Assembly (NCBI GenBank): GCA_050084515.1
Contig: CM114271.1
Coordinates: 11,346,001-11,410,000 of the forward strand
Direction: 5' to 3'
Origin: Blasia pusilla
Lineage: Eukaryota
Length of the DNA: 64,000 nucleotides
Position 1 is the stretch's first letter, and each line of letters begins with the position of its first letter. The translations under genes were made by a program, and so were the position numbers. The notes below the pieces were generated by a model. That model was not told the origin of the DNA. It was given only the letters and a program-made list of their open reading frames with translations, and searched no databases. Shown here piece by piece: positions 1 to 23,930 of this stretch.

Positions 1-869
1 ACTTAAAGGGGGCACCTATGGACGATTACCATCAGTTTTCCCAAAGATATGCCCATGAGATTGAAGATTGACTCTACTATGATCCACATTATGTGTAATG
101 GACGAATCCGTTTCTCGATGTGGAGGAGGAGTCAGGAGAGGCTTCTTCCTCTTCCATGAGTGATGTTTTAGGAGGAGTAACTCACAAAGGAGCAGTTGCA
201 TCGTCCAGTCGGGTTTGTCCCAGGTTCAACCCCGTGGTTTAGTTCTTTGCAGAGTTGAGGACGAGCTACTAGGGGGTACAGATTGAGAAGTTGCAAAACA
301 TCCACGACTTCCAAAGACGCATGGGTGAGAGTTTGTATGGGGCCTACACTCGCTTGCGCCGGTTGATTAACATCACTCAGGGGGATGACAGAGTCCCAGA
401 CTATCTAGTCATAGTACGCAATGTTGGACCGACTCCTGCGGACACGGGTGCGGGAGGGGTGCTTCTTATGAACACCTCACCTATGTTAAGAGATGTTTTT
501 AGGACCGCCGAGAATATTGAGTGCAAGATGGCAAAGGAGAGTGTAGCCACCATGGGTTCTAGGCAAAAGCAATCACGATTACCTATACCACCAGTGCAAG
601 AACGTGGATTCTGAGATAAGTCTGTGGCACCACGAGCTCAGGAAGGATATAGGGAGGCGTGCCATAGAGAACTACGTCTTCATATGTGGCTCAGCAGCAG
701 TCGCCTATGATTATTTGTCGGGCATGTGGTGGGGGCACAGCTTGTTGCTATCGTTATATGTGGAGCCACCGTAGAGTTGAATCCATAGAGAGGGGAAGCC
801 AGGAAACAGACCAGGCTTCCTCAGTCTTTCACGTTGTCTGAGGCGATGAGGACCCCATCGATGGGTCCT
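1..869 (+). mobile_element. gag-region fragment of DNMT/PHD Gypsy copy 2 (5' part; continues at 13294 after the nested copy 1)
   Basis: Homologous to the reverse complement of about 7250-8595 (ORF 291-614 'NIHDFQRRMGESLYGAYTRLRRLI' matches the copy-1 gag). Ends in gtcct at 865-869, repeated at 13294-13298, where the homology resumes. Confidence 0.85.
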
Positions 870-1638
870 TTCGTGCGCATACACATCGCTACATAACATA
901 CATCGCTGTCATTGAACACACACACAAATACACACGATCCCATGCTAACTCATGGCATCCATACATAGAGGCGAGACGTACCAAAATATCTCCAATTAAA
1001 GTTAGATCCAATCTCTCTCTACACTATCTCATACCATAGCTCTCAAAGGTGTCCACTCTCTCTCATGTCAAACCAAACCCACTCTCCTAATGAGAGGCTT
1101 GGATTACACTCACAAGACAAGGGACCATAACTCCGTTGCCTTATGCCAAGAGGTTCAACAAAGAGAGAATAAGCTCTCAAGCTCCCTCTCTTGGAGGTAT
1201 ACCCCCTTCCCTCTCCCAAGCCCTCTCAACCGTAACCTATGCTCGCACGTTACCTCCTTGGCTCTTGACTTGCTATAGCGGATCAAGGGCCACTTCCAAA
1301 AGTGGAAAGTGAACTATTCCCAATATGGAAACTTACCCGAAATAGTAAGTTTCTCTATATGGCTCCAAATGAGCCGAAACGAAGGGGAAACCTGCTCTCT
1401 TAGGTTTCTCTGGGCCTCTGCAAGTCATTCTCAATCTCCTAGGCATGTCCTCCACTACTCGTGAAAATGCTCTGCTAGATCCCAACGATCTATCCTAATA
1501 GTCATGACAGCTATCGTGCGCATACACATCGCTACACAACATACATCGCTATCATCGAACACACAAGAAACAATTACACACCATCCTATGCTAACTCATG
1601 GCATCCATACACAGAGGCGAGAAGTACCAAAATATCCA
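870..1638 (-). repeat. 3' terminal repeat block of copy 1: A (1512-1638), 11-bp spacer, B (about 995-1500), A (870-994)
   Basis: An approximately 125-bp direct repeat 'tcgtgcgcatacacatcgctac...ccaaaatatc' occurs at 871 and 1514. A G-run (PPT-like on the minus strand) lies at 1643-1648. Confidence 0.85.
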
Positions 1639-1826
1639 AGCGCCCCCCTAATTGGTGGTTAGGTCCCTCTAACTCTAGATAACCATCTATCCCTACCTAC
1701 CACGATATACATCTCTAGGACGCTAAGAGCAGAAAGGCCGGATGCTCATGTGGCCCCATCGTTAGTCACCTTTCCGTCATCCATATCACAGAAAAAGTTA
1801 GAATCAAAACCTACCTAGTATCTCCT

Positions 1827-1975
1827 CTATGTACATCTGGGACACATCCATCGTCCCTGAGGAACCCTAGTGAGAGGTGGCGTCAGACATGCCATATGCC
1901 AACCTCTCGAACTTCCATCACAGACTAGCATCATGGCCGCACCATGGGAAAAACCATACAACATACAACGCAAGC
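1827..1975 (-). pseudogene. PHD finger at the integrase C-terminus (copy 1)
   Basis: RCMLY...MLVCDGSSRGWHMACLTPPLTRVPQGRWMCPRC, a C4-H-C3 pattern; the two Cys missing here are present in copy 2. Confidence 0.88.
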
Positions 1976-3250
1976 GTGCAGGAACTACTGCTAAGCTTGG
2001 ATCTACTGTACCATCAATGTTAGGAAGGTGACATGGCGCACAATTACGCACATGCTCCTTCCATACCATACCATCGCATCCCTCCACCAGGAGAATACCG
2101 GATGGCAAAACGATACGCACTCTCAAGATAGTGCGCCCTGCAATCATATCCAACGTCGTCGGTGCAGTCTACTGCAAGTAGACATAATCTCCCTGATGAA
2201 ACCTCCGGATAGTTAGTCGATAACCACCACCCCGAATAGTCGCATACCTCAACGTATCCTGATGCTGCGCAATCGCCAAGTTCTCGAACGCCATGGGCAT
2301 CACTCTCCAAAACAACTCAGCCCTCTGGGTACATGCTCGCATCCATACATCTAGGTCATCAAGGTCCAATACCTCACCAACATCTCAACGAATGGCCGCA
2401 CGTAAATCTGGCTCTCGGCCATAAAGTAGCAAGTACACTGAAAAAGATGCTAAAGATGCCTGCCTGTTGAATCTGTATCCCATCGCGAACCATGGCAAGT
2501 GGAGGTCCCAATCTCCTAGGTGACCTCTATGCAAGCCATACTTGCATAAACCCCTCTTCACCGTCTGCACAACTCTCTCCGCTAATCCATCCGCCTCGGG
2601 ATGATCTTGCGAAGTCGTGCGGTGGTCGCTCAGCGCATGATTATACAAGGCCTAGAACTCACGGCGAAACTCAGTTCCCTAGTCTATGAACACCTCAGCG
2701 GGTGTGCCATAATGACTCAACACTCTGTCAAGGAAGGCATAAGCTACTCCCTCACTCGCTTTGTCAGGAAATGCAACTAACTTGATCCACTTCGAGAAGT
2801 ACTCAACCATCACCAACACATAACGACTGTGACGCTCCGTCAAAGGCAAAGGTCCTGCAAAATCCAAACTCATCTATACCCTAAGCCCATGATCGATAAT
2901 GGATGCAACTATGGAGTCGGAGCATTGAACGATGCTCGGACCTAATCACACACCACGCACTTGGCAACAAACTGCTGACGTGAGTCTGCATGCCTCGCCA
3001 CCAATACTGAAATCTGGAGCAAGCTGTACGTCCGCTTCATCCAAAAGTGACCCAACTCCTCGTGGGCATGTTGCACTAGTCGTGCTCTCTGCAAAGGATG
3101 TGGCACTACGCGTACTCTACCATCCTCCCAAACCCTCAAAACATGTGTCCCCTCCCAACGGAACCATCTGGCCCGCTGTAGGATCTGATCCCACTCTCTA
3201 GCACCCACGGTGCTCGCAAGGCTGCCACTACAAACGTACTCCAAGACTAC
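1976..3250 (-). pseudogene. DDE integrase with HHCC zinc-binding region (copy 1)
   Basis: HAHEELGHF...CVVC; SLDFAGPLP..YVLVMVEYFSKW; HPEADGLAERVVQTVK. Confidence 0.92.
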
Positions 3251-3459
3251 TCCATCATCATGAATATCTCAGCCACCTGTCGTCTCCTCACTGGCCTCGG
3301 GATCCAAGGACTCTCCACTAGACCTCGCCATCGAAGTCTCCACACTCTGGCTCTCCATAGTCAACATTCCTAAATAGGCTGATGCATGCCATCCTGGCAC
3401 TGACTATTCATCCCTCTCTCCATGCCATCGAGCTCTACTCACATCTCGCTGACTCGGGC

Positions 3460-4900
3460 ATGGGTTACGACTCAACCCGTCTGCATCTTGGTTGAGTGTC
3501 CTAGGTCTATGTACCACGTGAAAATCATACTCCTACAACAATAGAGCCCATCTCGCAAGCTTCCTTGTAAGCTTGTCAGACTCCATCAACCACTTTAGTG
3601 GTTGATGATCACTGATGATGGTAAAGGGGTTGCCAAATAAGTAACACCTGAAATGCGAGAAAACCCACACCGAATCCAAGCACTCACCCTCATAGGATTT
3701 TTACTTTGCCTCTACAGCGTTGTTTGAGCGGCTAGCGTAAGCCACCACGAACTCTCTACCCTCCTCATCATGCTAGGTGAGCACCGCTCCAAGCCCCAAC
3801 ATGCTCCAATCTAGGTGCATCTGGAAAGGACGCCCCCTGATCGGTCTCCTCAAGATGGGCGTAGACGTCAACTTGTCCTTGACCAACTGAAATGCTCCCT
3901 CCTGCTCATCCCCCCAGTGCCACTTGTGATCCATCTTGGTCAGCAAGGTCAGCGGCTTCGCAATCGAATTGAATCCCTTGACGTACCGCGGATAGAAGTT
4001 CGCCAATCCCATGAATGCGCAAACACAGCTCACATCTGTAGGGCGTGGAATATGTGAGATAGCCTCTACCTTTGTCTGCTAAACACCAAGGACCCCTGGG
4101 TATATCGTATGACCCAAATACTCAATCTAGTCGTAGAAGAACTTGCACTTGCCTGGATGTAGCTTCAGCCCATGTAATTGCAATCGTCGAAACACCTCCT
4201 CTAGATGTTGCTGATGCTCCTCAACCGTGGCGCTAAAGACTACAATGTCATCAATATAACACCTGGCAAAATCCAGACCACCCAAGATCCTATCCACGAC
4301 CATCTGAAACTCATATGGGGCGTTCTTTAACCCAAATGGTAAGAACCGCCACTGGTACAAAAAATCCTTCCCGTGAGGATTGATGCCCCAAAATGCCGTC
4401 TTCTTCCTATCCTCCAATCTGATAAGCAGTTGATGGTATCCGGCTTGCAAATCCAATGAACTAAAGACCTTTGCATGACCAATCGTATCAAAGATATCCT
4501 CAAAGGTGGGCATGGCATACCTATCCGACTTCGTCTGCCGATTGATAGGTCGGTAATCCCCACACATCCACGTATCCGTCCAGTTGCCATGCACATCCTT
4601 CTTGGTGGGCATGACAGTGGCAAATGCATACTCCCCATGCGACATCTCCACTAGTCCTGCTCCGACCTAGTCCTGGCTCCTATTCTGAATTAGAGCCCTC
4701 TCCATATCACTGTACCTGTAGGGTCGTTGGAAGATCGGCGTATCACTCCACAACTCAGTGTGGATCCCTGGTCCCTTCAACGTACCCAAATCCTCCATGC
4801 TAAACGCAAAGCAGCTCCTATAACTCTTGAGGAACTGATGTATCCGGTGCCGCTCTCCTCTTGTCAACTTAGGGCCCATATCTGGCTCCCAAGTCTCCAT
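3460..4900 (-). pseudogene. Reverse transcriptase and RNase H (copy 1)
   Basis: MCGDYRPIN, FSSLDLQAGYHQ, LPFGLKNAP, YIDDIVVFS, LHPGKC; FMGLANFY; LDWSMLGLGAVL. Confidence 0.95.
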
Positions 4901-5239
4901 CGTGACTACGGTAGGACTCTCCGGCGCGGGTATCGGTGGTTGCTATGGTGCAACCCCGTCTCGAACAACTACACTCGTCCGCTCTCTTGCAGCCAATTGA
5001 AAACTCTGATCTCCTCCAAGTGCAGTGCCCGGAACCACGCTCGATGTTATGGCTATCATCTCCTGGCGTTCCTGCAAAACATCCCAAGAAGTCCAAGGGT
5101 GTCTCTCCCTATCTTCCATGGTGTGTAGATCTCCTCGGGTCTCGCCCCCAACCACTGCCTCCACCGTCTCGGTAGGCATGGGGCTCACCAATGCAACCGT
5201 TGTGATCTGTCGCGATCTCATACGGCGTTGCTCAGCCAC

Positions 5240-6200
5240 TCCCAAGCTGAGGATCCATGTCAAGCAGTTCAGGTCCATCGCGTGACCCAAGACATGGCAT
5301 CGTGATGCCTCTGACACTGCCGTCACCCCTGTGGGAAATCCCATCGCTCACTCTCTCTCGTCGGCGTTGGGCTCCACCAAACGCTGAACCTGGTCATCCC
5401 AAACCAAGCCAGGACCGGCCTCCTTGTATGCATAGGAAGCGGGAAAACTCACAAACGTGGGAAAGGCTGCCCGCAGCCTGCCTACCCTCTTGACCATAAT
5501 CAACGATGGTCGATCATGTGCCTCATTGCCTCTGATCGACGACCTGGATCCAGAATGGAATCCACTAACAAATGGGAGGGGCGCTCCACTCTCGCATACG
5601 CCCTCCGTAACACCGCACGGGGCACCAAGTTGGTCCACCATAGACGCGGCCAATGGGCTCTAGAACCTACACTTGCCACATCCAAGAACACTACTAGGCT
5701 GATCTAGGCACACACTTGATGAGCACTCGTCATCACCCGTGACCTGGAGTCTCCTAAGGTCGGCACATTCTCCAGAATGTAGGCTGGAGAACGAGACTGG
5801 TGCTCCTGCAACTGCCGTAAGACCCTCAACATCTCCCAAAACAACCTAGACCGAGTGTCAGCCAACCCGCTGCCTCGTCTAGCATTTGATTGGCCCTGAC
5901 ATGGCCAACCGGGAATGACCAAATCAATGGTCCCTACCCGCTCTAAGTCCTGCGCCCCCAACAACGAAATATCCCTCGGTAGGGAACTCAGGTATCCCTG
6001 TACCGCGGACGGAGACAATAAGTGGGGAAAACATAGGCGTAACCGCGCCACATGTCATGGTGAGACGCGCCTCGCAACATCATCACTCTCCACATACAGG
6101 TACTGATGTACTCGCACTCTTGCTTGCAAAACAACAGCTAACCCAAATGCTAATCCCTCCAAAGAGATCTAACACTCGAATACCCTCCTTTGGGGTACAC
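5240..6200 (-). pseudogene. DNMT3-like C5-cytosine DNA methyltransferase domain inside pol (copy 1)
   Basis: Motif I IRVLDLFGG (about 6181-6155), motif IV IDLVIPGWPCQG (catalytic PC), motif VI YILENV, motif VIII-like GSRAHWPRLWWTNL, motifs IX/X EPNADERE.AMGFPTGVT...RCHVLGHAMD, all in canonical order. Confidence 0.92.
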
Positions 6201-6484
6201 CATATAATGGGTGTGGTATCCAAGGGTGTCATCGTAGCACTCCCTGATACCTCGGGTTTCTCACACCCGTCACGCTCCGGTGCAAACGCCTTGCTCCACG
6301 CAGTCTGCCCGTGCTCATTTTCCAATCGTCGAAGCTCCTCAGTCGAGCCCCACAGCGGCACCTTTCCTCCACGGGATGATGTGGCTGCCATAACACTTCT
6401 CTCCATAGAAATGTCAAGAACGGATAATGAGCTAAGGCGCTCATCACTTGACTGCCATCATGGTCTGTAGGACGTTGACTTCTC

Positions 6485-6817
6485 CTAGTAATCCAGGGAA
6501 AACCCCATCAGGTATAATACTGCTCCACCAACCAAGATGCCGTAGGACTCTCCATCAGTTACTATCGCCTTGGCTCGCGCCATGGACTCATAAGTAGGAT
6601 GTCCCGGGTGAATCCTCACCACGACCTCCTGTTGGATGATATAATGTGTGGCACTCGCTCCACCCAAGGATGTCTGTATCTGGAATGGAGAATGCTCCAC
6701 ATCGGCTCTTGTCAAGCCCAATCCTCTAAATGACGCTTTCCCCAACATCAAGGGTTGCGCTCCTGAATCCAACAAGATGCGCTGTGGACTAGAAGCTCTA
6801 TCTTCGGGACTCACCAA
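6485..6817 (-). pseudogene. Retroviral-type aspartic protease (copy 1)
   Basis: ILLDSGAQ active-site motif and downstream ILVGG. Confidence 0.85.
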
Positions 6818-8970
6818 CTAGAAGACCTCTCGGTTATCCAGAAACACAACACCAGGAGAATCTCGACACATGCCTCTCCTGATCATCAACAATAGGAGTT
6901 GTCGCACTCGTTTCTTCCATCGCCCTCCATGCTTGCATACCAACAACATCACCAAGGGCAGGCCCATCACCTCCTCTACAATCACCTCTGAACGTGATGC
7001 AAGAACTCCAACTCCACGCTCACATAGCGTAGCGGCCAGCCGAAAAGCCTTGGTGAGCGTACCCCCCAACGTCATAACATCCGATGTAGAAAATAAAGGA
7101 GCGCGGTACACAATGGTGGCCGCCCCCAACAACATGCTCGACACATGCCTCTCCTGAGCATCAACAATAGGAGTCGTCGCACTCCTTTCTTCCATTGCCC
7201 TCCGTGCTTGCATACCAACAACATCACCAACTCCTGAGGAACTTCGATCAAGACCCATCGATGGGGTCCTCATCGCCTTGCACAACGTGAAAGACAAAGG
7301 AAGCCTAGTCTGTTTCCTGGCTTCCCCTCGTTGTGGATCCAACTCTACGGCTACTCCATGCGTCACAACTGCGGCTACCTCCATCAAGGCAACCCCGCAC
7401 ATCCAACCAGGATCCTCCATATCTTTGGTTGCTCCATATGATGTTGATGCTACGGATCCGGCATCAGGTAATCTCAATGCCATAGCGTGAATCTGCTCTT
7501 GTATCTGAGCAGCCATCCTAGCCTCACGCCCGACATCTCCCTCGACGCATCGAGGTGGTAGGACTCTACCTCCTCCATGGGCAGCTCCACCACCGTGTCG
7601 GGCAACTCCAGCTACTCATCCCCCAATGGGACCACCTGGTGCACAATCTCTAGGCCCACCCCGACCGGCTACTTGCTCTGGTGCCCTCTCTGGCCCTCGG
7701 TCCGGATGTAACTTAAGATGTAAATTGAAACACCTGGCGCATGTATGACCATACCTTTGACAATAGTCACACTGATAACCTCTTGGTGCAGCACCATCTC
7801 CTCCTCCATGCTGAGGCACACGTCCATGACCCTGACGAGTGCAATCGCATTGATGATGGGCTCCACCATATGACCAACAAGTAATAGTAGGTGGTTGTTA
7901 TTGAGCCGTATATGAAGGCGCAGGTCTCTGTGGCACGGCCTCCCGGTATCCTCCTTGAGCTTGTGGTGCCACAGTCAACCTATCTCGGAGTTCACGTTGC
8001 TACACAGGTGGTGTAGACAATCGCGACAGCTCTTGCCCAGAACCCATGGTGGCTACGCTCTCCTCCGCCATGTTGCGCTCAATGTTCTTGGCGGTCCTAA
8101 AAACATCTCTCAACGTAGGGGAGGTATTCATAAGAAGCACCCCCTCCTGCACCAATGTCCGCAAGGTCTAGTCCAGCATCGCGTACCAGTATTGGATAGC
8201 ATGAGCCTCTATCACCCCCTGAGTGACGTTGATCAACCGGCACAAGCGAGTATAAGCCTCACACAAACTCTTACCGGGCGCCTCTAGAAGTTGTGGATGC
8301 TCCGCAACTTCTCCGTCCATACCCCTTGGTAGCTTGCCCTCAACTCAGCACAGAACTCAACCACAAGGTTGAACCTGGGACAAACCCGACTAGACGGTGC
8401 AACTGCTCTCGTGTGAGTGACCCCTCCTAAAACGTCACTAGTGGAAGAGGAAGTAGCCTCTCCTCACTCCTCCTCATCTGGAAATGGCTCTATCCATGAC
8501 ACATAATGTGGGTCATAGTAGAGCTTCCACGCCTCGATCTCACGTGCATATCTCTGAGAGAACTCATGGTAATTTTCCATGGGCGCCCCCTCTAAATGCT
8601 GGAACATACCATTCCATGCTGTAAATGGGTTGAACTCACTAGAGTCCGTGGCCCGCTGGGAGTCGCACCAACTCCTAAAGTCTGGTATGAAATCGTGCAA
8701 CTCAATCGTACCTACTGCATCTAAAAACCTACGCGGTCCTCTACCCAAGTCGTCCATCTCGTACGCCCAACTCGTAGGACCACTCACAATGTGTGGCAGT
8801 GTGCTCACAAACTCCTCTACATCCTCCTCCTCATTTGACGATGACACAGAAGGAGGTCGAGGTGGTCCCTCATGTGGAGACCCTAAGAACCTCGCGCCAC
8901 TCCGCGTAAAACCTCTAGAACTGCTCTGGGGTTCACCACCTTGACTCTCAAAGTCCCGAACGGACTCCAT
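6818..8970 (-). pseudogene. gag with CCHC zinc knuckle (copy 1)
   Basis: ORF 8464-8970 (FQHLEGAP..Y) and CDYCQRYGHTCARC at about 7730-7772; lies upstream of the protease. Confidence 0.78.
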
Positions 8971-10586
8971 GATGACCCTCGTGCCCCTCTCACTCGATCA
9001 CTCTCAACCCCACGAGTAATCCCTCAATCACTCATCCCAAACATGCGGCATTCGATCTACACTCTCCCTCCCCGAGACATGTAATGTGCGGCAACAAACA
9101 GCATGGTGCGGCAAATCGACCAAGCTATCATCTCATCGACAACCTACCCTCAACTCCGGAACATCCCACACAGGTCTATGTCCTCTAAACCACATACATA
9201 AGTGATGCTCTCAGCATCCACACAACCCAATATCCCCAAATAAACTTCCAAAATCCCACAATCCCTCACGCGTGTAGGGTAAAGGACCAGAATGGGTAAC
9301 CTGAACACATGTCGATGTCGCTCCTTAGCAATTGCAAATCTCAACCCCAACTTGGTCGTGGAGACAACTCCACCAATCAGCAAGCCATACTCCTCCCGCA
9401 CTGATGCCACTCAAAACTCCTCGAAAGATAGTGCGGTTCCAACGGAACGGTGGGGCGTTGCAGGCGGCACGGAACGGCTACGAACGACACGACCCTTGAT
9501 GGTGGGATGCGGCACTCGACGGCATACCCTCCTCAATCAACAATAAACCCACACTCTGCTCCACAATGATGGAGCGGCTCTGCGATCGAGACGGTGCAGT
9601 GTAGCCACGAGCGGCATGACGCAGCAATCGGCGGCGCGTTGCGGCTACGGGCGTCACGACACGGTACTCAATCTTTGTCGAGCGGCTACCAATCATAACA
9701 TAATAGCATGAAATCGAAACTCAAACACCATAAACGGAGGTCATCTTCCATCATTGGTTGATGACGAAACTGCGATAACGGTGGCGGCCAAAACAAAGTA
9801 CGTGGTGGCGACGCAAGTCAGAGAATCAACGAACGTCATAGAAGACCCTCCACTCCATAATGGCGGCAATGGCAACCAAAGGGTGGACCATTGAAGGTGA
9901 CGGTTGATGGTGACTATGATGGCGACGGCCGCCGCCGGCGTGGCGCCTGGTTTAGGGTTTGAACAATTTAACCCTAAAAATTGCCTAGCAATGGCAATTT
10001 TGCAAGATTGACCATAACTTTTTGCTCGCAACTCCAAATTGCGCATGGTTTATTCTACAGTGTGCACAACTTCACAATCTACGATAATATCAAAAATTTT
10101 TAGAATCAAACATTCCAGTAAAAACTGACAGGGATTTTTGTAAAGCCCAATGTCTCTTTCTCCTACACAAAATTTGGCAAGGCTTCCACGCTGATTTCTC
10201 CCAACGAAAATGTAAACCTGTAAAAATACAAATCAGCAAGCTACATGGTGCTCCCAAGAGCACTGGCATGGGGCAACCCGCTCCCATACTCAATCCCTAT
10301 CAAAAATTGGGCAGCGCTTCCCTGCGCCACTCTTCCACACGAAAAATCAGCAAGTGCAAAGAACAATCAAAGCAACCCTTGCTCCGGTGAGCACTCCTAT
10401 GAGCCACTGAATGGGACACAGTCCTCAACCTGAAAAAACAGCGAGCTGCCAGCAAGCTCCCCCATGAAGCTCTCTGACTCTCTCATTCTCTTGTGCGCCC
10501 CTCATAAGTGGCTCCCGTGTATGTTAGATACTTTTGGGACTCTAGTTAGGTGAGTAGAAGGAGCTAGAACAACAATCTGCAATTTA

Positions 10587-12707
10587 AATGGGATCATTGG
10601 TGCTATTTTGACCAAGATGGTGGCAACTCACAAATCAGATTGGGATAGGAAATTAGCTTCAGCTGTCCATGCTTACAACACAGCTGAGAAGAGTACAACA
10701 GGGAAAAGGCCCTACTTCTTGGTGTATGGGCAAAACCCTCTCTCGGTAGTAGAGTTGGAGTTGAAGACTCATCACACTCTAGAAGGGCACTTCCAACCTG
10801 AAGGTGGCATAGATAGCACGCTGGATATGATTGATGCCCTAGAGGAGGAAAGAAAGGCAGCATTGGAGAAGACCAAGGCGGTTCGGCAACAAAGGAAGAT
10901 GAGGTTTGATAACCGAATAAAGCATGATCCAGTGAAGGATGGGGACCTGGTGCTGATGTATGATAGTCGACACCAAAAGTTTTCAGGAAAGCTGCACATT
11001 CGACAGCTTGGGCCTTATCAGGTGGAGCTGAAGAGCATCCAAGGGAGTGATGAGAGCAGGTGGAGCTGAAGAGCATCCAAGGGAAGTGATGAGAGCAGGT
11101 GGAGCTGAAGAGCATCCAAGGGAGTGATGAGAGTAGGTGGAGCTGAAGAGCATCCAAGGGAAGTGATGAGAGCAGGTGGAGCTGAAGAGCATCCAAGGGA
11201 GTGATGAGAGCAGGTGGAGCTGAAGAGCATCCAAGGGAAGCTCGAACCAGCTTGAGAAGAAGCAAGCATGGGAAGAATGTAAAGGTAGGTCTTACCTTCA
11301 AGCATGTCCAAGAGACAAGTCGAGCCTATGCCATCAATGCTGCTCAAGAGACTTTAGTTAGGACAGGTTCAGAAGTAGATGAGGTAGAAATTTCATGCAG
11401 TAGATGCCTTGGAGTAGATGCTTAGGGGGAGGTAGATTTGTAGGAAGGTAGGAACCCTGAATGCCAGAGAAGCCCAAGTGGGAAGAGGGCTCTCAGCTTC
11501 ACTTATAAATACTCAGTTGGGTTTGCTTGAAGGGGGGCATATACATGTTGTTGGCTAGTAGACACTCAATCTCTTGAGCCAAGCTAACCAGCAGAGTTAT
11601 GTGCTCCCAGATCTAGGTAGTGTGTAGTGTGCTTGAAGGGGGCTGAGACTAAGAAGGTCTCCCATGTACTCGATGATTTTTTTGATACACAGAAGGTAGC
11701 CCTGTGAAATGAGTTCACTCCACTACCCTGTATCTGAGTTTGTGCATGATTGAGTGATGAGTTTGGGGGGTTGATGAAGTGAGATTCTTGGAGCTGATTC
11801 AACTAATCATTAAAAAGTGTAGTGAGTGGACAAGAGGCTATACCAGTAGAGGGGAGGCAAGCTTGGGTTCCAAGATTGTGCTCCACCAAGATGTGCTTGG
11901 AAAGCTTGCTGTTCTGCCCACCTGAGCTTGGCCTTTGACACCAATCATTGATTACTTCCTGGGTGTGACAACTTGGACTTCCAGGTCTGGTAAGTGATAA
12001 GAGTTAGTGAGTGGAGAGAGAGAGAGAGGGTCATGCTTGAGCTCCCCTATAGGTAGAAGACCATGGGCTCAGCCTATTAAGTCTCCTACTACCTGAACAA
12101 GAAGGGAGAACAAAGGATCAGCAAGGTAAGAGGAGAAGAAGAAGGGACGTGGGTGTTGGTTTGAGCAAATAGAGAGTTTCTTTCCTTTCAGGCTACCCTA
12201 GGGGTGGATGATTATACTAGACAGCGTATTGGATGGCCTTATGTTTTTTTTAGTAGTCTCTAGTTGTGAGCCTTGAGTATGTGTGCTGGTTGAATTCCCA
12301 CTGAGCACTCTATCTAAGGACTCAAAACTACACCCAAGCTCTCACTAGATACTCGGTGAGGAGAAAAAGGTGATTGCACTACCTGATCGGTTAGGAGTTG
12401 GGTGTGCTTTAGAGGATGTCCTTGGTACATTCAACTAGTCCAAGGCAGCACATTGGAGGACCTTATGCTGTCTGGTCATTCTTGACTGTGATTTCTAAGT
12501 AGAGTGTGCTTGTTGGGTTCCACTGGCCACTCCACTCAAAGCACTCAAGAGAAAGGAAGGAGTTTTGGTTAGTAGGGTGAGGACAGGATTGTGATATTGA
12601 AGTGGAGAGAGTTTCTCTAGCCTCTTAAGGTAAAGAGGTGGGGTTTACAGCTGTTAAGGAGTACATCTTGTAGATCTGATCTTTTGATCTGGCCCTAAGC
12701 TCTTACA
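10587..12707 (+). mobile_element. 3' fragment of an unrelated Gypsy element: integrase C-terminus, PPT and probable 3' LTR (about 11439-12707)
   Basis: NGIIGAILTKMV..DWDRKLASAVHAYNTAEKSTTGKRPYFLVYG...GDLVLMY..KL...GPY; purine tract 11424-11436 followed by tgtagg...cttaca. Confidence 0.75.
11019..11240 (+). repeat. Tandem repeat of alternating 38/39-bp units (about 5.8 copies)
   Basis: Unit caggtggagctgaagagcatccaaggga(a)gtgatgagag starts at 11019, 11057, 11096, 11134, 11173 and 11211. Confidence 0.95.
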
Positions 12708-12790
12708 TGGGACCGAACTGGTGGAACTAGCAACATTTTCTCCTGGGTTGTGTGCTGGCCATGTATTACCTGGTGAGACATCTCTCTTTG

Positions 12791-13293
12791 TAAAGTAAAA
12801 TCCAATCTCTCTCTACACCATCTCACACCATAGCTCTCAAAGGTGTGCACTCTCTCTCATGTCAAACCAAACCCACTCTCCTAATGAGAGGCTTGGGTTA
12901 CACTCACAAGGCAAGGGACCATAGCTCCGTTGCCTTATGCCAAGAGGTTCAACAAAGAGAGAATAAGCTCTCAAGCTCCCTCTCTTGGAGGTATACCCCC
13001 TTCCCTCTCCCAAGCCCTCTCAACGGTAATCTATGTTTGCAGGTCACCTCCTTGGCTCTTGACTTGCTGTAGCGGGTCAAGGGCCACTTCGCAAAGTGGA
13101 AAGTGAACTATCCCCAACATGGAAACTTAACCGAAATACTAAGTTTCTCTATATGGCTCCAAATGAGCGGAAATGAAGGGGAAACATGCTCTCCCAGGTT
13201 TCCCAGGCCTCAGCACGTCATTCTCGACCTCCTAGGCCTGTCCTCCACTACTCGTGAAGACGCTCTGGTAGATCCCACCGATCTATCCTAACA
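12791..13293 (-). repeat. 5' terminal repeat (B segment) of copy 1
   Basis: Near-identical to about 997-1500; ends ...gatctatcctaaca immediately before the TSD gtcct. Confidence 0.9.
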
Positions 13294-13653
13294 GTCCTGA
13301 TGAGAGTTTGCGGAGAGTTGATGTTGTTGGTGTGCAGACACGGAGGGCGATGGGAGAAGCGAGTGCGATGACTCCTAATGCTGATGCTCGGGAGGAGCAT
13401 GTGCCGAGTACGATGTTGGGGGCGGCCACGATGGTGTACCATGCTCTGTTGTTTTCTGCTTTCGATGTTATGATGTTGGGAGGTACGCCCGCCAAGGTTT
13501 TCTGGTTGGCCGCTATGCTATGTGAGCGTGGAGATGGAGTTCTTGCATCACGTTCAGAGGTGATTGCAAAGGAGGTGATGGGGATGCCCTTGGAGCTGAT
13601 GCTCGGGTTGTCCACCTCAGATTCATGGCAGGTTGCAGCTACTAGGATGGCGG

Positions 13654-14217
13654 AGAGGAGAGGAAGAGAGGAAGAGAGGAGAGAGGAAGATATTGGCAAC
13701 CCCTAGGGCTCTTTTGGTTTGAAGAGAGTTTCCGACAAGTTGAAGAGAGGAAAAATTTGACAAGTTGAAAAGGAAAAATTTTCCAAAAAAATTGGTGGTG
13801 AAAAAAATTTTGAATTTTTTTTTACCTTTTCAACTCGTCGGAATCCAATGGGTTGCAATTTATTTTTTATGGTTAAGGAAAAATTTTCATTTTTTTGGGT
13901 TTTTTTAACATTTGCAACCCGTCGGAGTCCAACCGGTTGCAAATGTTAAAAAAACCCAAAAAAATGAAAATTTTTCCTTAACCCACAAAAAAAAAAACCA
14001 AAAAATTGCATCCCATCGGATTCCGACAGGTTGCACTAAGTTTCCTCTCTTCAAAAAAAATCTCAAAAAAATTACTCACTTATTATCCATAATCTTCATA
14101 TTTTTTGAAGAGAGTTTCAGTTTTCTTTCCCTTTTGTGCCTTTTTTTTAAGAGAGGCTCTACTCTCTTCCTCTCTTCCTCTCCTCTCTTCCTCTCTCCTG
14201 CCAGAATACCAGCCCCT
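13654..14217. mobile_element. Foldback/MITE-like non-autonomous DNA transposon, possibly Mutator-like
   Basis: Long imperfect palindrome centred near 13928, with (GA)-rich and (TC)-rich ends. Flanked by the duplication ggatggcggaga at 13645-13656 and 14218-14229. Interrupts copy-2 gag. Confidence 0.75.
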
Positions 14218-15059
14218 GGATGGCGGAGATGCCCACTAGACCCACGATAGAGCATGCCATGGTTGCTCCAGGTGTTGTGTTGCTAGATAACCAAAGAGAG
14301 ATCTTTGAGTTGGTGAGTCCAGGAGGTAGATTGTTTTTTTCATAGCATGTCTTGTTAGATTCAGGAGTACAACCCCTGATGTTGGGGAAGGCGGCATTGA
14401 CGAGGTTGGGCCTAACGAGGGCCGATGTGGAGCGTTGTCCATTAAGAATACATACATCCTTGGGTGGAGCGAGTACCACATACTTTATCACCCGCCATGA
14501 GGTCGTGGTGAGGATTTGCCTAGGACATCCTACAGATGAGTCCGTGGTACGAGCCAAGCCAATCGTGATCGATGCACAGTCCTACGACGTCTTGGTTGGT
14601 GGAGGAGTGTTGTACCCGATGGGATTTTCCTTGGATTACTAGGAGGAGTCAGCGTCCTACAGACCAAGATGGTAGTTTGGCGATGGGCGAATTAGCTCAT
14701 TACCTGTTTGATTCACGAGTGGAGTGATCGAGCGATGGCCAAGAGAGATGGCAACTTTAGGAGCATTTAGCAGCGCCATCACGTGACCTTCTGATTTGAT
14801 TGAGGGGCATGTCCGTAGAGGACATCTCGCGCCTGACACTTCTAGGGAGAGGAGTGTTATGGTAGCCGCATCATTCTGTGGAGGAGAGGTGCCGCCGTGG
14901 GGCTCAAGTGAAGATCTCTGACGTTTATCTGATGAGCACGTGTAGACGGCTTGGACTGAGGCGTTTGCACTAGAGCGTTCCGGGTCAAAGGGACTCGAGG
15001 TAGCCGTAAGTGCTACTATGATCCCTTTCGACATCACCCCGATTGTGTGGTGCATTCCA

Positions 15060-16030
15060 GAGGAGGGTATTTGCGTGTTGGATCTCTTTGGAGATATGAG
15101 CACTGGCTTAGCTGCTGTTTTGTAGGCAGGAGTGCGTGTACAGAAGAACTTCTACTACTGCTGTACGTGAGATTGATGATGTTGCAATGCGCGCTTCACT
15201 TCACATGTAGCGCACTTACACCTCCGATTTCCTGACTTATTGTCTACGTCCGCCATCTAGGGATACAAGAGTTCCCTACCGAGGGACATTTCATTGTTGG
15301 GGGCGTAGGACTTGGAGCGGGTACGGACCATAGATTTGGTCATTGCTAGTTGACCATGTCAGGGTCAATCGAGTGTTGGACAAGGTAGCGGGTTGGTTGA
15401 CACTCGATCAGGTTGTTTTGGGAGATGAAGCGGATCTTGCGACACTTGCAAGAGCATCAGTCTCGTTCTCCAGCATACATTATGGAGAATATTCTGATTT
15501 TGGGCGATTTGAGGTCTTGCATGATGACAGTGCACATCAAGTGCACGCATGGATTGGCCCGACAATGTTGTTGGATGCGGAGAGTGTAGGTTCACAAGCA
15601 CATCGCCCACGTCTTTGGTGGACCAACTTGATGCCACATGAGATTTTGCAAAGGGCGTACGCGAGAGTGGATCGCCCCTCCCATTTGTTGGTGGATTCTA
15701 TTCTAGATCTAGGTCGTCGGTCACAGGCAGTACGACACGATGATCGACCTCCGTTGATTATGGTCAATAGGATTGGCATGCCATGAGCAGCCTTTCCCAC
15801 ATTGGTGAGTTTTCCCTCTCCCTATGCATTGAAGGAGGGCGGACCTGGTTTGGTTTGGGATGCAAAGTACAGCGGTTGGTGGAGCCTAACGCCACCAACC
15901 ACATGGGATTTCCCACAATAGTGACAGAAGTATCGTCACTATCAGAGGCATTACGACGACATGTCCTGGGTCAGGCGATGGACTGCTTAACATGGATTTT
16001 CAGCTTAGGAATAGCTGAGCAACGTCGTTT
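15060..16030 (+). pseudogene. DNMT3-like methyltransferase domain (copy 2)
   Basis: ICVLDLFGD; IDLVIAS*PCQG (about 15330-15365); YIMENI; GSQAHRPRLWWTNL; LVEPNA..MGFP...RRHVLGQAMD. Confidence 0.9.
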
Positions 16031-16629
16031 GAGGTTGCGACACATTATAATTATTGTGTTGGTGAGCCCCATGCCTATCAAAACCGTTGAGGCACTGGCT
16101 AGGGGCGAGACCCGAGGAGATTGACACACTAGGGATGATCGAGAGAAACACCCCTAGACTTCTTGGGATGTTTTGCAAGTACGCTAGGAGATGCTAGCCA
16201 CAACATCGAGCATGGTTTGGTTTGGCATGCACGTGGAGATCAGAGTTTGCAGTTGGCTATAGGGGAGCAATCGAGTTTTGTTGTCTGAGACAGGGTTACA
16301 CCATAGCAAACACCATGGTTGGAGTAGGACTAGTGGAGATGTCGCATGGAGAGTATGCATCTGCCACTATCATGCTTGCCAAGAAGGATGCGCATGGTAA
16401 CTGGACGGATACGCGGATGTGTGGAGATTACCAACCTATCAATCGGCATACGAAGTCCAATAGATATGCCATGCCTACCCTTGAGGAGATGTTTAATGCT
16501 ATTGGGCATGCAAAGGTCTTTAGTTTGTTAGATCTTCAAGCCGGAGGCCATTAGTTGCCTATCAGATAGGAGGATAGGCAGAAAACGATATTTTGGGGCA
16601 TCGATCCTCATGGGAAGGATTGCTTGTAC

Positions 16630-19077
<2,448 letters not shown>

Positions 19078-21459
19078 GCTTGTATGAGTGGTGGTTCTTA
19101 CCATTTGGGTTAAAGAATGCGCGGCTGAGTTTCAGAGGGTCATGGATAGAATCGTGGTAGGTCTCGATTTTGCTAGGTGTTATATTGATGACATCGTAGT
19201 CTTTAGCGCCATGGTTGAGGAGCATGAGCCACATCTAGAGGAGTTGTTTTGACGATGGCAGTTATATGGGCTGAAGCTACATCGAGGCAAGTGCAAGTTC
19301 TTCTACGACTAGATTGAGTACCTAGGTCATACCATATACCCAAGTGGCCTTGGTGTGGAGCAGAATAAGGTAGAGGCTATTTCATGCATTCCACGCGCTA
19401 CACATGTGAGTCGAGTTCGTGCATTCATGGGATTGGAAAACTTCTATCGACGTCAAGGTTTTCACTTCAATTGCGAAGCCGCTAACTTTGCTGACCAAGG
19501 TGGATCAGGAGTGGCATTGGGGGGATGAGCAGGAGAGAGCATTTCAGTTGCTCAAGGACACATTGACATCTGCGCCCATATTGAGGAGACCGATCAAGGG
19601 GCGTCCTTTCCAATTGCATATCGATTGGAGCATGTTGGGACTTGGAGCCGTGCTCATCCAACATGACGATGATGGTAGAGAGTTCGTGGTGGCTTACGCT
19701 AGTTGCTCAAAAAACATTGCAGAGGCAAAGTATAACTTGTATGAGGGTGAGTGCTTGGCTGCAATGTGGGTTGTTGCACATTTCAGGTGTTATCTATTTG
19801 GCAACCCCTTTACCATTATTATTGATGATCAGCCACTTAAGTGGTTGATGGAGTCCGACAAGCTTATAGGAAAGCTTGCAAGGTGGGCTCTTTTGTTGCC
19901 GGAGTATGACTTCTAGGTGGTGCATAGACCTGGGATGCTCAACCAGGATCTAGATGGTTTGAGCCGTAACCCATGTTCGAGTTAGCGAGATGCGACTGGA
20001 GCTCATTGGCATGGAGAGAGTGATGAGGAGTTGGTGCTAGGATGGCACACGTTAGGCTATTTGGGCTTGTTGGCTATAAAGAATCAAATTCTTGAGACTT
20101 CGATGGCGAGGTCTTATGAAGAGTCCTTAGATCTAGAGGCCGGTGAGGAGACAAGAGGTGGCCGAGATATTCACGACGATGGATTAGTCTTGGAGTACCT
20201 GCGTACTAGCAGCGTCGCGAACACAATGGGTACTAAAGAGCGGGATCGGATCCTACAACAAGCCAAACGGTTCCGGTGGGAGAGGACCCATGTGTTGCAA
20301 GTTTGGGAGGATGGTAGAGTATGTGTATTGCCTCATCCTTCATAGAGAGCACGTTTGGTATGTCATGCCCAAGAGGAGTTGGGTCATTTTGGAGTGAAGC
20401 GGACGTACATCTAGCTTGCTCCAGATACAATATTGGTGGCAAGGCATGCATACTGACATTCAGTAGTTTGTTGCCAGATGCATGATGTGTGATTGGGTCT
20501 AGGCATCGTTCAATGCTTTGACTCCACAATTACATCCACTTTCGATCATGGACTTAGGTTATAGATGGAGTTTGGATTTTGCCAGACCTTTACGTTTGAC
20601 ACAGCACCATAGTCGTTATGTGTTGGTGATGGTCGAGCACTTCTCAAAGTGGATAGAGTTTGTTACATTGCCTGACAAAGCCAATGAGGGAGTAGCGTAT
20701 GCCTTCCTAGATCGAGTCATTACAGCGCACCAACTGAGGTGTTGATAGACGAGGGTACAGAGTTTTGTCGGGAGTTTCAAGCCTTGTATGATCAGGCGCT
20801 GATCGACCACCGCACCACTTTGTGAGATCATCATGAGATGGATGGACTAGTGAAGAGGATTGTGCAAACAGTGAATAGAGGATTACGCATGTATGCCTTG
20901 GAGAGAGGTCATTTAGGAGATTGGGACCTCCAATTTCCGAGGTTGGCGATGGGATACAGATACAGCAAGCAGAAATCCTTAGCGTCTTTCTCACTGTTCT
21001 TGCTACTTTATGGTCGAGAGCCGGATTTACCTGTGGCCATTCGTCGAGATGTTGTTGAAGTGATGAACCTTGATGACCTTGATGTATGGATGCGATCATG
21101 TTCATAGAGGGCTGAGTTGTTTAGGAGAGTGATGCCCATGGTGTTTGAGAACTTGGCGATTGCGCAACATTGAGATACGTTGAGGTATACGACTATTTGG
21201 GAAGGTGATTATCGACCTACTATCCGTAGGTTTCATCAGGGATAATATATCTCCTTGCAAGAGATGGAACCTATGAAGTTGGATATGACTGTAGGGCGCA
21301 CTATCTTGAGAGTGCGTGAGGTTTTGCCATCTGGTGTTCTCTTATTGGAGGGATGCGATGGTATGGCTTGGAAGGACCATGTGCGTAACTATGCGTCAAG
21401 TCACCTTCCTAACATTGATGGTACAATAAATCCGAGCTTAGTAGTAGTTCTTGCAGGCT

Positions 21460-21605
21460 TGCAATGTATGTTGTGTGGTTATGCCTGTGGTGCAGCCACT
21501 ATGCTAGTCTGTGATGGATGTTTGAGAGGATGGCATATGGCATGTTTGACGCCACCTCTCACTAGGGTTCATTGGGGATAAGGGATGTGTCCTAGATGTA
21601 CATAG
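21460..21605 (+). pseudogene. PHD finger at the integrase C-terminus (copy 2)
   Basis: CMLC...MLVCDGCLRGWHMACLTPPLTRV, then MCPRC after a frameshift. Confidence 0.88.
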
Positions 21606-21786
21606 AGTAGGTAGTTCTAGATTCCAACTTGTGTCTCTAATATGGATGACAAGAAGGCGAAAAATGATGGTGCCACAAGAGCACCCAACCTTTTTGCTCT
21701 TAACGTCCGAGAGATGTATGTCATAGTAGGTAGGGATAGATGGCTATCTGGAGTTAGAGAGATCTAACCACCAACTAGGGGGCGAT

Positions 21787-22551
21787 TGGAGATATTTTGG
21801 TACTGCTCGTCTTGTTGTGTGTATTCCATGAGTTAGCATGGGATTGCGTATGTTTGTGTGTATGTTCGATGACTGCGATGGATATTGTGTAACGATGTGT
21901 ATGCGCACGACAACTATCACGTCTTTAAGGATAGATCGGCGAGATCTAGTAGAGCATCTTTGGAGATACTGGAGGATATCTTCAAGAGGTCAAGGATGAC
22001 ATGCTAAGGCCATAGGTAGCATACGAGAGCAAGTTTTCCTTTTGGTTCGGCTCATTTGGAGCCATATTGAGGAACTTACTATTTTAGGTAAGTTATTGTT
22101 TTTGGTATAGTTGAATTTTCACTTTGGGAAGTGGCCCTTGTTTTGCTACAGCAAGTCAAGAGCCAAGGAGGTGACTTGCAAGCATAGGTTACCGTGGAGA
22201 GGGCTTGGGAGGAGGAAGGGGGTATACCTCCAAGAGAGAGAGCTTGCGAACTCATTCTCTCTTTGTTGAACCTCTTGGCATGAGACGGCGGACCTATGGT
22301 CCTCCTTACCTTGTGTGTGTAATCCAAGCCTCTGATTAGTAGAGTGGGTTTGGTTTGACATGAGAGAGACTGCACACCATGGAGAGCTTGGTGTGAGATG
22401 TTGATGCGAGATTTCATTGATTTATTGGAGATATTTTAGTACTTCTCGTCTCGTTGTGTGTATTCCATGAGTTAGCATAGGATCGTGTTTATTTGTGTGT
22501 AGGTTTGATGACAATGATGTATGTTATGTAGCAATGTGTATGTGCACGATA
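21787..22551 (+). repeat. 3' terminal repeat block of copy 2: A (21787-21912), 11-bp spacer, B (21924-22425), A (22426-22551)
   Basis: tggagatatttt...gcacgaca/ta occurs twice; B is homologous to 995-1500; G-run taggggg at about 21776-21782. Confidence 0.88.
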
Positions 22552-22579: not shown

Positions 22580-23930
22580 CTAACATCTCCTCTATGCGTA
22601 GTACCCTGAATTACGCTGGATGTTATGGCTACCAACTCCTGATGTACCTGCAAAACATCCCAACAAGTCCAAGGGTGTCTCTCTCGATGACCATTAATAT
22701 GTTGATCTCCTTGGATCTTTCCCCTAGTCATTGCCTAAACCGTATCGGTAGGCATGGGGCTCATCAACGCAATAGATATGACGTGTCGCAACCTCATCCG
22801 ACGGTGCTCAGCTACTCCTAAGCTGATGATCAATGTCAAGCAATTCAGATCCATCGCCTAACCCAAGACATGATGTCGATGCCACTAATAGTCATAGTAT
22901 TGTTATCACTCTTGTGGGAATTCCCATTTCCGGCTCTTGCTCATCGGTGTTGGGCTCCACCAATCGATAAGCCTTGTCATCCCAGACCAAGCAAGGACTG
23001 ACCTCCTTGTGTGCATAGGAAGTGGGAAAACTCAAAAAAGTGGGAAAGGCTGCTCGTGACATGCGAATCCTATTGACCACAATAAATGATGCTCATGTGC
23101 TCATGAACCTATACTCGCTGCATCCAAAAATATTGTTGGGTCGATCCATGCATCCACCTGATGTGCACTTGTCACCACCCATGACCTTGAGTTGCCCAAG
23201 ATCAATACATTCTTTTAAGATGTACTTTGGGGAATGAGGTTGATGTTCCGACAAATGTTGCAAGATCCTCATCATCTCCCCAAACAATATGGAATGAGTA
23301 TCAGCTAACTTGCTACCTTGTCCAACACTCAAGTGGCCTTGACATGACCAACCAGCAATGAACAAATTCATGGTCCCTACCCGCTCCAAGTCCTACGCCC
23401 CCATAAAAGAACTGTCCCTTGGTAGCGACCTGTGGTGCCTCCTATACGGATGACATAGACAACAAGTTTCATTGGGAAAATGGAGGCATAACTATAGTAA
23501 ATGTTGAAGTGAGATGCGCCTCAAAATCTCATCAAGCTCCACATACAAGCACTGGCGCATACGCATCCCTACCTACAAAACAACAACCAACCCAATTATG
23601 ATCCCTCTAAGAAATCCAATACCTGAATAGCCCCCCCTCTAGGATGCCCCACACAATTGGTGTGGTGTCAAAGGGTGTCATTGTAGCACTCCCGGCTACC
23701 TTGGGTTCCTATGACCCATCATGCTCTAGTGCAAACATCTCACTCCACACTATCTCCACATGCTCATCGGCCAAGCGTCGGAGCTCCTCACTCGAGCCCC
23801 ACACAGGAACTTCTCCTCAAGGGAATGATGCGGCTACCATAACACTCCTTTCCGTAGAAGGTGCTAGACAGAGATGTGTGCCTTGCATGGACATGCTCCT
23901 CAATCAGATGTGGTCTCATGAGGGGACCAC
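22580..23930 (-). mobile_element. DNMT/PHD Gypsy copy 3: fragment with the DNMT3-like domain and flanking linkers
   Basis: Collinear with about 5010-6430: ERVGTMNLFIAGWSCQG, YILKE, LVEPNTDEQEPEMGIP. Confidence 0.85.

Follow-up and report, generated by a model that had tools for sequence, protein, structure and literature searches.

A PHD finger at the integrase C-terminus of a Gypsy-Dnmt3-type retroelement of Blasia pusilla and its possible part in the choice of integration sites

The first 24 kb of the DNA analysed here, a window of 64,000 nucleotides from the bryophyte Blasia pusilla (GCA_050084515.1, contig CM114271.1, positions 11,346,001 to 11,410,000), hold three nested copies of one retroelement family, delineated by self-comparison and tblastn. 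In copy 1, the span 1827-1975 encodes a PHD finger that we read as the C-terminal module of the integrase of a streptophyte Gypsy-Dnmt3 element. In active members of the family this finger would tether integration to chromatin unmethylated at lysine 4 of histone H3 (H3K4me0), and the DNMT3-like DNA methyltransferase (DNMT) of the same element would act separately. Taken as a whole, this explanation has in our estimate a probability of about 0.6. The original prediction, made from the letters of the window, had pointed the same way: it placed a C4-H-C3 PHD finger at the end of the integrase of copies 1 and 2, where chromoviruses carry a chromodomain, saw a methylation writer in the same element and proposed that integration may be directed to H3K4-unmethylated chromatin.

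The finger is present in two of the copies, which lie on opposite strands and are 83% identical over 3460 aligned bases.

1830-1967, minus strand: PHD finger of copy 1 (PF00628), followed by the stop codon 1827-1829
1968-2168, minus strand: C-terminal SH3-like domain of the integrase of copy 1, in the same open reading frame as the PHD finger (alignment A1; CAPCH motif conserved)
21465-21602, plus strand: PHD finger of copy 2 (PF00628), with its terminal stop at 21603-21605

Pfam domains were sought in the stop-to-stop open reading frames (ORFs) of copies 1-3, and both fingers scored above the PF00628 gathering cut-off of 24 bits: the copy 1 ORF 1830-2168, of 113 amino acids (aa), with 32.5 bits (E 8.8e-08) and the copy 2 ORF 21246-21578 with 27.3 bits (E 3.7e-06). 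The codon of the first cysteine ligand of copy 1 (Cys1) lies at 1967-1965, so that the span 1827-1975 covers the finger and its stop. The zinc ligands of this copy read C,Y,C,S,H,C,C,C, six of the eight being kept and Y and S replacing two cysteines. Copy 2 retains all eight, starting with Cys1 at 21465-21467, and is interrupted between ligands 6 and 7 by an in-frame TAA (21579-21581), the reading then continuing to 21603-21605. The predicted C4-H-C3 pattern is complete in most of the family and broken in the window, by the stop in copy 2 and by the two replaced ligands in copy 1. In both copies the finger directly follows the SH3-like C-terminal domain of the integrase (…GRTILRVREVLPSG…NCAPCHLPNIDG…), in one ORF and in the same frame, and the stretch of copy 2 from RNase H through integrase to PHD aligns by tblastn to the intact relative P0029 as a single frame +3 segment. 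These matches identify the window finger as a genuine PHD zinc finger and not a chance match. Judged by the domain order, and as had been predicted, it occupies the position of the chromodomain in chromoviruses: it comes after the SH3-like domain, and no chromodomain (PF00385) was found in the ORFs of copies 1-3. The SH3-like domain itself contains a motif, C-A-P-C-H-L-P, that is nearly invariant among bryophyte and algal relatives in alignment A1 (window 2033-2047, minus strand) and that might be a further metal site or the family form of the usual C-terminal motif of Gypsy integrases.

Intact forms of the same arrangement are found among related proteins. The 113-aa piece of copy 1 matches 34 longer proteins, of which 28 contain PF00628; the best of them reach 70-75% identity, the named ones coming from Marchantia polymorpha (annotated 'PHD-type domain'), Calypogeia fissa and Sphagnum fallax, alongside many unnamed records. 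The intact relatives carry RVT_1, RT_RNaseH, Integrase_H2C2 and rve domains, with reverse transcriptase (RT), RNase H (RH), integrase (IN) and PHD in one open frame. That the PHD might lie out of frame with the integrase in intact copies, the observation named beforehand as fatal to the original prediction, does not hold, because the intact ORFs P0028 (1043 aa), P0029 (1033 aa), P0036 (1073 aa), P0006 (728 aa) and P0022 (591 aa) end in IN-SH3-PHD. The cluster of P0028 at >=90% identity counts 226 members, and nine of the 15 listed are 1043-1044 aa long, which speaks for a recently active family with an intact finger. One protein of this cluster, P0321, an intact 1043-aa RT-RH-IN-PHD polyprotein, bears the public label 'uncultured Synechococcales cyanobacterium', probably through the binning of eukaryotic DNA into a metagenome genome.

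On a larger scale, a search of 1.84 billion representatives gave 3439 matches at E <=0.001 and 585 at E <=1e-10. The PHD follows an H2C2/rve integrase in all 28 long proteins scanned from the best 150 matches, and the C4HC3 pattern is complete in 121 of these 150, as well as in 23 of the 34 relatives of the 113-aa piece. A metagenome scan with P0036 missed the contigs from which P0036 itself comes and returned only chlorophyte-type relatives, 38-55% identical, on contigs shorter than whole elements; no terminal repeats were found in the metagenome loci L002, L005 and L006, whose contigs do not span whole elements. The chlorophyte-type relatives (P0085-P0168, L002-L015) have 100-500 residues without a Pfam match after the PHD, and P0167 also has a G-patch.

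The kind of PHD finger present in the family bears directly on its possible target. Among the 60 listed of the 77 PDB matches, the nearest solved fingers by sequence are those of CHD4 (PHD2, E 8e-13), Drosophila Lid, human KDM5A/B (PHD1) and PHF12; the second fingers of KAT6A/B (MOZ), DPF3 and DPF2 also match, as do ATXR5, PHF21A (BHC80), AIRE, BAZ2A/B and UHRF1. Readers of unmodified H3 (BHC80, CHD4 PHD2, KDM5A/B PHD1, DPF3/MOZ PHD2, ATXR5, AIRE and BAZ2A/B) are matched with E values from 8e-13 to 1e-7 and share with the family the pattern MLxCDxC...H..CL.PPL..xP.G.W.CP.C; they differ from the family finger, which stands in a transposon polyprotein and in its bryophyte forms lacks acidic loop residues. 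Reading of the unmodified H3 tail is stated in the PDB entry titles of BAZ2A, UHRF1 and ATXR5, and most of the remaining nearest fingers prefer unmethylated K4 as well. ING4 appears among the PDB matches only at E ~4e-4. Readers of H3K4me3, of the BPTF and ING type, hold a cage tryptophan two residues before the histidine ligand. At this place the 144 family fingers with a full pattern have glycine (130), alanine (11) or, once each, cysteine, threonine and serine, never an aromatic residue. The aspartate of the CDxC motif is invariant in alignment A1 (D189), where the residues of the MLxCD beta-strand and the PPL..xPxGxWxC tail are conserved as well. The family finger was also considered as an ADD domain (ATRX-DNMT3-DNMT3L), an identity that we rejected, no DNMT3 ADD chain being among the listed PDB matches.

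A structural model of the relative P0003 agrees with these similarities. Its mean predicted local distance difference test score (pLDDT) is 67.6, with 80-88 in the finger and 84-87 in the SH3-like beta-barrel, and the modelled finger superposes on solved PHD fingers with a root-mean-square deviation (rmsd) of 0.5-1.6 Å over 45-51 columns, at 34-48% identity. The individual comparisons give 48% identity and 1.0 Å for BHC80, 46% and 0.8 Å for DPF3b, 44% and 0.5-0.6 Å for DPF2, 38% and 1.3 Å for ATXR5, and 34% and 1.1 Å for BAZ2A with 'unmodified H3K4 histone peptide'. The top two-domain fold matches are the Tudor-PHD cassettes of PHF1, MTF2 and UHRF1, with an rmsd of 12-15 Å; in the model, P0003 and these cassettes have in common the succession of barrel and finger alone, and their geometry differs. 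Since the finger finds its closest likeness among readers of the unmodified H3 tail and has glycine in the place of the cage tryptophan, targeting of integration to H3K4-unmethylated chromatin is plausible.

The element that carries the finger was identified from the following parts of copy 1.

868-13300, minus strand: copy 1, a decayed Gypsy-Dnmt3-type element (self-comparison; 5' boundary within 13300-13318)
2388-3268, minus strand: remains of the integrase H2C2 domain and catalytic core (PF17921 on 2945-3268; frameshift near 2873-2972 by tblastn)
3776-4078, minus strand: RNase H (PF17919, 40.9 bits)
4130-4666, minus strand: reverse transcriptase (PF00078, RVT_1, 102.4 bits)
5230-6460, minus strand: DNMT3-like cytosine-5 methyltransferase (PF00145, 44.1 bits; in several frames; tblastn to P0018 and P0034)
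6488-8600, minus strand: aspartic protease (6488-6817) and gag, from their likeness to the gag-protease-DNMT relatives P0214 and P0212

The Pfam matches of copy 1 follow on the minus strand in the order protease (PR), DNMT, RT, RNase H, Integrase_H2C2 and PHD, the succession of PR, RT, RNase H and an H2C2 plus DDE-type integrase being that of Ty3/Gypsy; the protease match (PF13975) is weak, its 16.9 bits lying below its cut-off. From this order the element is classed as Ty3/Gypsy, with the layout gag-PR-DNMT3-like-RT-RH-IN-PHD. The methylation writer announced by the original prediction is thus recovered as a PF00145 cytosine-5 methyltransferase whose nearest solved counterparts are DNMT3A, 3B and 3C. 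The PCQ and ENV motifs of copy 1 lie within the ORF 5707-6054, and the DNMT piece matches bryophyte proteins, the named ones from Sphagnum troendelagicum and Calypogeia. Two relatives, P0214 and P0347, have gag, PR and DNMT in one ORF, and their sequences allow motifs I, IV (PCQ), VI (ENV), IX and X to be read, in the conventional numbering, in the order of a non-rearranged C5-methyltransferase. The intact DNMT of P0214 has as its nearest solved proteins DNMT3A, 3C and 3B, then plant DRM.

In the window element the DNMT is placed between PR and RT, and RT, RNase H and integrase (~1000 residues) separate it from the PHD. The DNMT-bearing and RT readings of copy 1 share one frame, with a single stop at 4943-4945 between them, and the database ORFs of bryophytes stop after the DNMT (P0214, P0347) and begin anew before RT (P0028). 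The single in-frame stop, together with the break of these ORFs between DNMT and RT, hints at a layout of two ORFs, gag-PR-DNMT and RT-RH-IN-PHD, connected by read-through.

The terminal repeats add a further character to this identification.

868-1636, minus strand: 3' terminal repeats of copy 1, in sense order short (1636-1511), long (1507-997) and short (990-868)
12791-13300, minus strand: 5' long terminal repeat (LTR) of copy 1, matching 997-1507 at 92%

Read in the sense direction, copy 1 consists of the long repeat (13300-12791), the internal part, the short repeat (1636-1511), the long repeat (1507-997) and the short repeat (990-868), that is A-internal-B-A-B, so its terminal repeats are split in a DIRS-like arrangement and are not simple LTRs. 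The 3' end of copy 2 has the same layout. The two short repeats of copy 1 (125 bp) are 89.7% alike and the long ones (510 bp) show 40 differences in 510 aligned bases; no clear target-site duplication was found around copy 1, whose insertion is old by these repeat differences (40/510).

These characters link the window element to KnitGypsy-Dnmt3 of Klebsormidium nitens, which the legend of Fig. 4c of de Mendoza et al. 2018 (PMC5890265) describes as a Gypsy with DNMT3 and DIRS-like split repeats, a kind cited as 'streptophytes (Gypsy-DNMT3)' in a 2026 preprint (bioRxiv 10.64898/2026.05.21.726589). The two have in common that they belong to Gypsy, that their polyprotein includes a non-rearranged DNMT3-like domain and that their repeats are split in a DIRS-like way. 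The K. nitens polyprotein P0251 ('KFL_009030040, partial') has the order PR-DNMT-RT-RH-IN of the window element and groups with its bryophyte relatives, the K. nitens and family DNMTs being 32-39% identical. The record of this protein breaks off within the SH3-like domain, short of where a finger would follow, and the protein is alone in its cluster.

In a quick maximum-likelihood search (34 polyproteins, 940 columns, LG+G4), 25 family rows formed one clade against nine other Gypsy polyproteins, with a Shimodaira-Hasegawa-like approximate likelihood ratio test value (SH-aLRT) of 100. Three bryophyte rows, P0223 and the K. nitens P0251 share one branch with moderate support (SH-aLRT 92, not starred), and 18 algal rows constitute the sister clade (SH-aLRT 100). 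The position of the DNMT between PR and RT, the split repeats and the grouping with K. nitens led us to file the window element under the streptophyte Gypsy-Dnmt3 elements, and on these sequence characters it is a bryophyte addition to that published kind. Membership of the chromoviruses was considered and rejected: the chromodomain is missing from the ORFs of all three copies, a PHD stands in its place, and the chromodomain-bearing polyproteins fall in the outgroup of the tree.

The association of finger and methyltransferase extends well beyond bryophytes. PF00145 occurs in 21 of the 103 relatives of P0034, and PF00628 in 19 of these 21; the two without PF00628 are the K. nitens protein, whose record is truncated, and P0223. 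In P0034 itself (1583 aa), which has the order DNMT-RT-RH-IN, a complete C4HC3 pattern lies 13 residues short of the C-terminus, a finger that Pfam did not list at E <=1e-5 despite the complete pattern. In the algal clade the DNMT comes after RNase H and before the integrase, named examples being 'pol [Scenedesmus sp. PABB004]', Cymbomonas tetramitiformis and Haematococcus lacustris. A profile was built from five DNMT segments of the family, including that of P0087, itself one of the targets; it matched 24 of the 28 long IN-PHD proteins and all eight further algal ones. It matched none of four outgroup Gypsy proteins and neither of two bryophyte RT-RH-IN-PHD ORFs, both of which begin at RT, downstream of the DNMT position. 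As for the four misses among the 28, P0048 and P0050 start too late to include the domain, and in P0036 and P0164 the spacing between RH and IN is as short as in the bryophyte type. Over 353 residues the DNMTs of bryophytes and of Scenedesmus share 39% identity (E 3e-59), a far closer match than that of the bryophyte DNMT to DNMT3A, whose E value of 4e-11 comes from a much larger search; the two arrangements thus have one DNMT module in common, which changed place. On the evidence of these profiles and alignments, integrase-PHD and a homologous DNMT co-occur throughout a whole green-lineage clade. The acquisition of DNMT3 is presented in PMC5890265 as belonging to the K. nitens lineage, and the same DNMT module is found here in bryophyte and chlorophyte elements.

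How the two domains might work in active members of the family can be outlined as follows. The finger would bind the N-terminal tail of H3 unmethylated at K4, and the bound tail would tether the integrase with the cDNA to nucleosomes that lie outside active promoters, a role like that of the chromodomain in chromoviruses. The DNMT3-like domain would act separately, on the cDNA or on the new insertion; an action of the enzyme on the cDNA or new copy was proposed for DNMT-bearing elements by de Mendoza et al. (PMC5890265). The parallel with chromoviruses, the Ty3/Gypsy elements whose integrase is fused to a chromodomain (Gao et al. 2008, cited by PMC6673714 and 10.1101/2021.11.30.470311), lies in a histone-tail reader at the integrase C-terminus after an SH3-like domain and in the same proposed tethering logic. 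The difference is one of module and of mark, a chromodomain for H3K9me on the one side and a PHD finger for what is likely unmodified H3K4 on the other.

Six stops in 2972-1830, ten in 4906-2873 and the frameshift near 2873-2972 break copy 1, and 15 in-frame stops in 19452-21602 break copy 2. Both window copies are dead, with neither an intact finger nor an intact integrase, and as pseudogenes they therefore encode nothing now. Several observations weigh against the explanation given for active members of the family. A number of H3K4me0 readers hold K4 by acidic residues in the loop after the second cysteine and before Cys1. The algal fingers (…CEVCRFPDNEAEMLLCD…) have such residues and the bryophyte fingers (…CMLCGSAGQAARMLVCD…) do not, for which reason the specificity of the bryophyte fingers may differ or be lost. 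The original prediction is thus supported in part: its reading of unmethylated H3K4 is backed by likeness, to the unmodified-H3 readers and in the glycine two residues before the histidine, and in bryophytes the missing acidic residues speak against a simple form of it. P0223 (2352 aa), which has a DNMT, stops shortly after the SH3-like domain and has no PHD, which shows that at least one line can do without the finger; algal relatives continue for 7-507 aa after it, which means that it is not always the terminal module. When the DNMT of the K. nitens Gypsy was tried in yeast, no methylation was seen, a result that the authors called inconclusive (PMC5890265). The location of copy 1, in another member of its family and amid nested transposons, is in keeping with the explanation, but one such insertion where transposons abound carries little weight on targeting. 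Finally, the tree that supports the K. nitens grouping is the product of a quick search.

An unlikely reading that deserves to be weighed is that the finger binds a non-histone partner, be it nucleic acid, another part of the intasome or a host factor of chromatin or nuclear import, and helps in integration or in particle biology with no reading of H3K4. Non-histone partners are known for some PHD fingers, and the loss in bryophyte fingers of the acidic loop residues of their algal relatives would fit such a role; the Tudor-PHD cassettes found as top two-domain matches (rmsd 12-15 Å) make a composite surface with the SH3-like barrel conceivable. What tells against a non-histone partner is that the likeness in sequence and fold is highest to fingers solved with H3 tail peptides, and that the MLxCD strand residues and the PPL..xPxGxWxC tail are conserved.

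We judge it distinctly improbable that the finger instead serves the DNMT3-like enzyme of the element, sensing H3K4me0 in the manner of an ADD domain and directing or switching on the methylation of the new copy or its surroundings. The joint travel of PHD and DNMT through the whole clade would be accounted for in this way, the DNMT of P0214 has no reader domain of its own, and the chlorophyte order RT-RH-DNMT-IN-PHD sets the DNMT directly upstream of the integrase, so that one mature DNMT-IN-PHD protein is conceivable there. The window arrangement speaks against it, with its ~1000 residues of RT, RNase H and integrase between the two domains and with bryophyte database ORFs that end after the DNMT (P0214, P0347) and restart before RT (P0028). 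The finger, moreover, resembles a canonical PHD, the listed PDB matches including no ADD chain of DNMT3, and P0223 has a DNMT without a PHD. An artefact, in which a chance run of Cys and His residues or part of a host gene with a PHD came to lie beside a dead integrase through nesting, might be suspected in a nest of insertions with both copies broken, and is practically ruled out by two 83% identical copies with the finger at the same place and in frame with the integrase C-terminal domain, by intact one-ORF relatives in several species and by the 585 representative clusters at E <=1e-10; a captured host PHD exon falls on the same grounds.

Returning to integrase tethering with a separate DNMT, a broader history can be proposed, which we regard as tentative and somewhat doubtful. 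An ancient, Viridiplantae-wide clade of Ty3/Gypsy elements might ancestrally have combined a DNMT3-like enzyme specific to transposons and a PHD finger that is fused to the integrase and of the H3K4me0-reading type, the DNMT having moved between the streptophyte (PR-DNMT-RT) and chlorophyte (RH-DNMT-IN) orders. The capture of DNMT3 would then not be an event of the K. nitens lineage, and the elements would rebuild across their polyprotein the logic of animal DNMT3, to read H3K4me0 and write 5-methylcytosine, choosing H3K4-unmethylated chromatin and marking their own new copy.

A PHD finger in Gypsy elements and a DNMT3 in Gypsy elements are each already published. Craig et al. 2022 (PMC9940879) describe a PHD finger in the Gag-Pol of Gypsy-7a_cRei of Chlamydomonas, whose new insertions are intergenic 2.6x more often than expected, a precedent for the reading proposed here; REM1 (Perez-Alegre 2005) is cited there as a PHD-bearing Chlamydomonas element. 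Gypsy-7a_cRei resembles the window family as a green-lineage Gypsy with a PHD in Gag-Pol and with LTRs composed of sub-parts; for its finger, too, a role in the choice of insertion sites is proposed. It differs, in a comparison by description only, in that its legend lists no DNMT and names the PHD before the integrase. On a wider scale, PHD and Chromo domains co-occur with RT and integrase domains across 172 genomes (bioRxiv 10.1101/2021.11.30.470311). The EpiLTRs of Cymbomonas and Euglena, LTR elements with DAM, DNMT and chromodomain whose DNMT is sister to DNMT4 (bioRxiv 10.64898/2026.05.21.726589), are comparable to the window family in joining a DNA methyltransferase with a chromatin reader, and unlike it in having a chromodomain, a DNMT4-sister enzyme and an added DAM in place of a PHD finger and a DNMT3-like enzyme with no DAM. 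Cymbomonas also has a polyprotein of the present DNMT and PHD clade (P0264).

In the main text and one supplementary text file of PMC5890265 the word 'PHD' was not found, the figures (among them Fig. 4c, in which the finger may be drawn) lying outside that search. More generally, no text description of a PHD finger in Gypsy-DNMT3 or bryophyte Gypsy elements was found in a literature search whose scope left aside figures, most supplements and subscription journals, and the covered portions of PMC11982613 and PMC9998398 hold nothing relevant on a PHD in such elements. What is added here is the placement of bryophyte copies in the Gypsy-Dnmt3 kind, the PHD finger as a conserved part of that kind, and the extension of the DNMT-PHD pairing to chlorophyte elements with the DNMT at another position. 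An old, clade-wide pairing of a DNMT3-like enzyme with an integrase-fused PHD like those of unmodified-H3 readers, with the DNMT at two positions, may merit specialist attention. If the finger does steer integration, these elements would provide, after the chromoviruses, a second independent case of retrotransposons choosing their landing site by a histone reader, and for a different mark; the pairing with an element-encoded DNMT3 would provide a natural setting in which to ask if transposons determine the epigenetic state that they are in.

The remaining features of the window concern the nest and its surroundings.

13319-22549, plus strand: main part of copy 2 (self-comparison, tblastn), the start of its gag lying at 3-867, to the left of copy 1
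22585-23906, minus strand: copy 3, a fragment with the DNMT region only (self-comparison, tblastn)

Copy 1 was inserted into the gag region of copy 2, and its flanks 769-867 and 13319-13593 are neighbouring stretches of that gag, the left one matching 7350-7252 of copy 1 and the right one 7226-6952. Another ~2.4 kb of other DNA splits copy 2 at 16630-19080, and within this insert lies a perfect (CT)n microsatellite at 17443-17691. Between the gag and the 5' repeat of copy 1, some 4.2 kb (8600-12790) have no Pfam match and include a tandem array with a period of ~38 bp at 11019-11240; this stretch could be a long ORF1 or leader, the algal relatives L006 and L003 having an ORF1 of ~1900 aa, or another insertion. 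The observed/expected ratio of CpG is 0.69 and 0.64 in the element copies, against 0.91 around a host gene at 57310-62540, where SPX and EXS domains in separate exon-like ORFs resemble a PHO1-type phosphate exporter. A Copia-type gag fragment (PF14223) is found at 27203-27547, and a second, unrelated Gypsy element (gag, RT, RNase H, rve) at 32396-39679. This second element is bordered by a direct repeat pair (29978-30378 and 39688-40093, 85%) and has, downstream of its integrase, a 541-aa ORF (38057-39679) without a convincing Pfam match.

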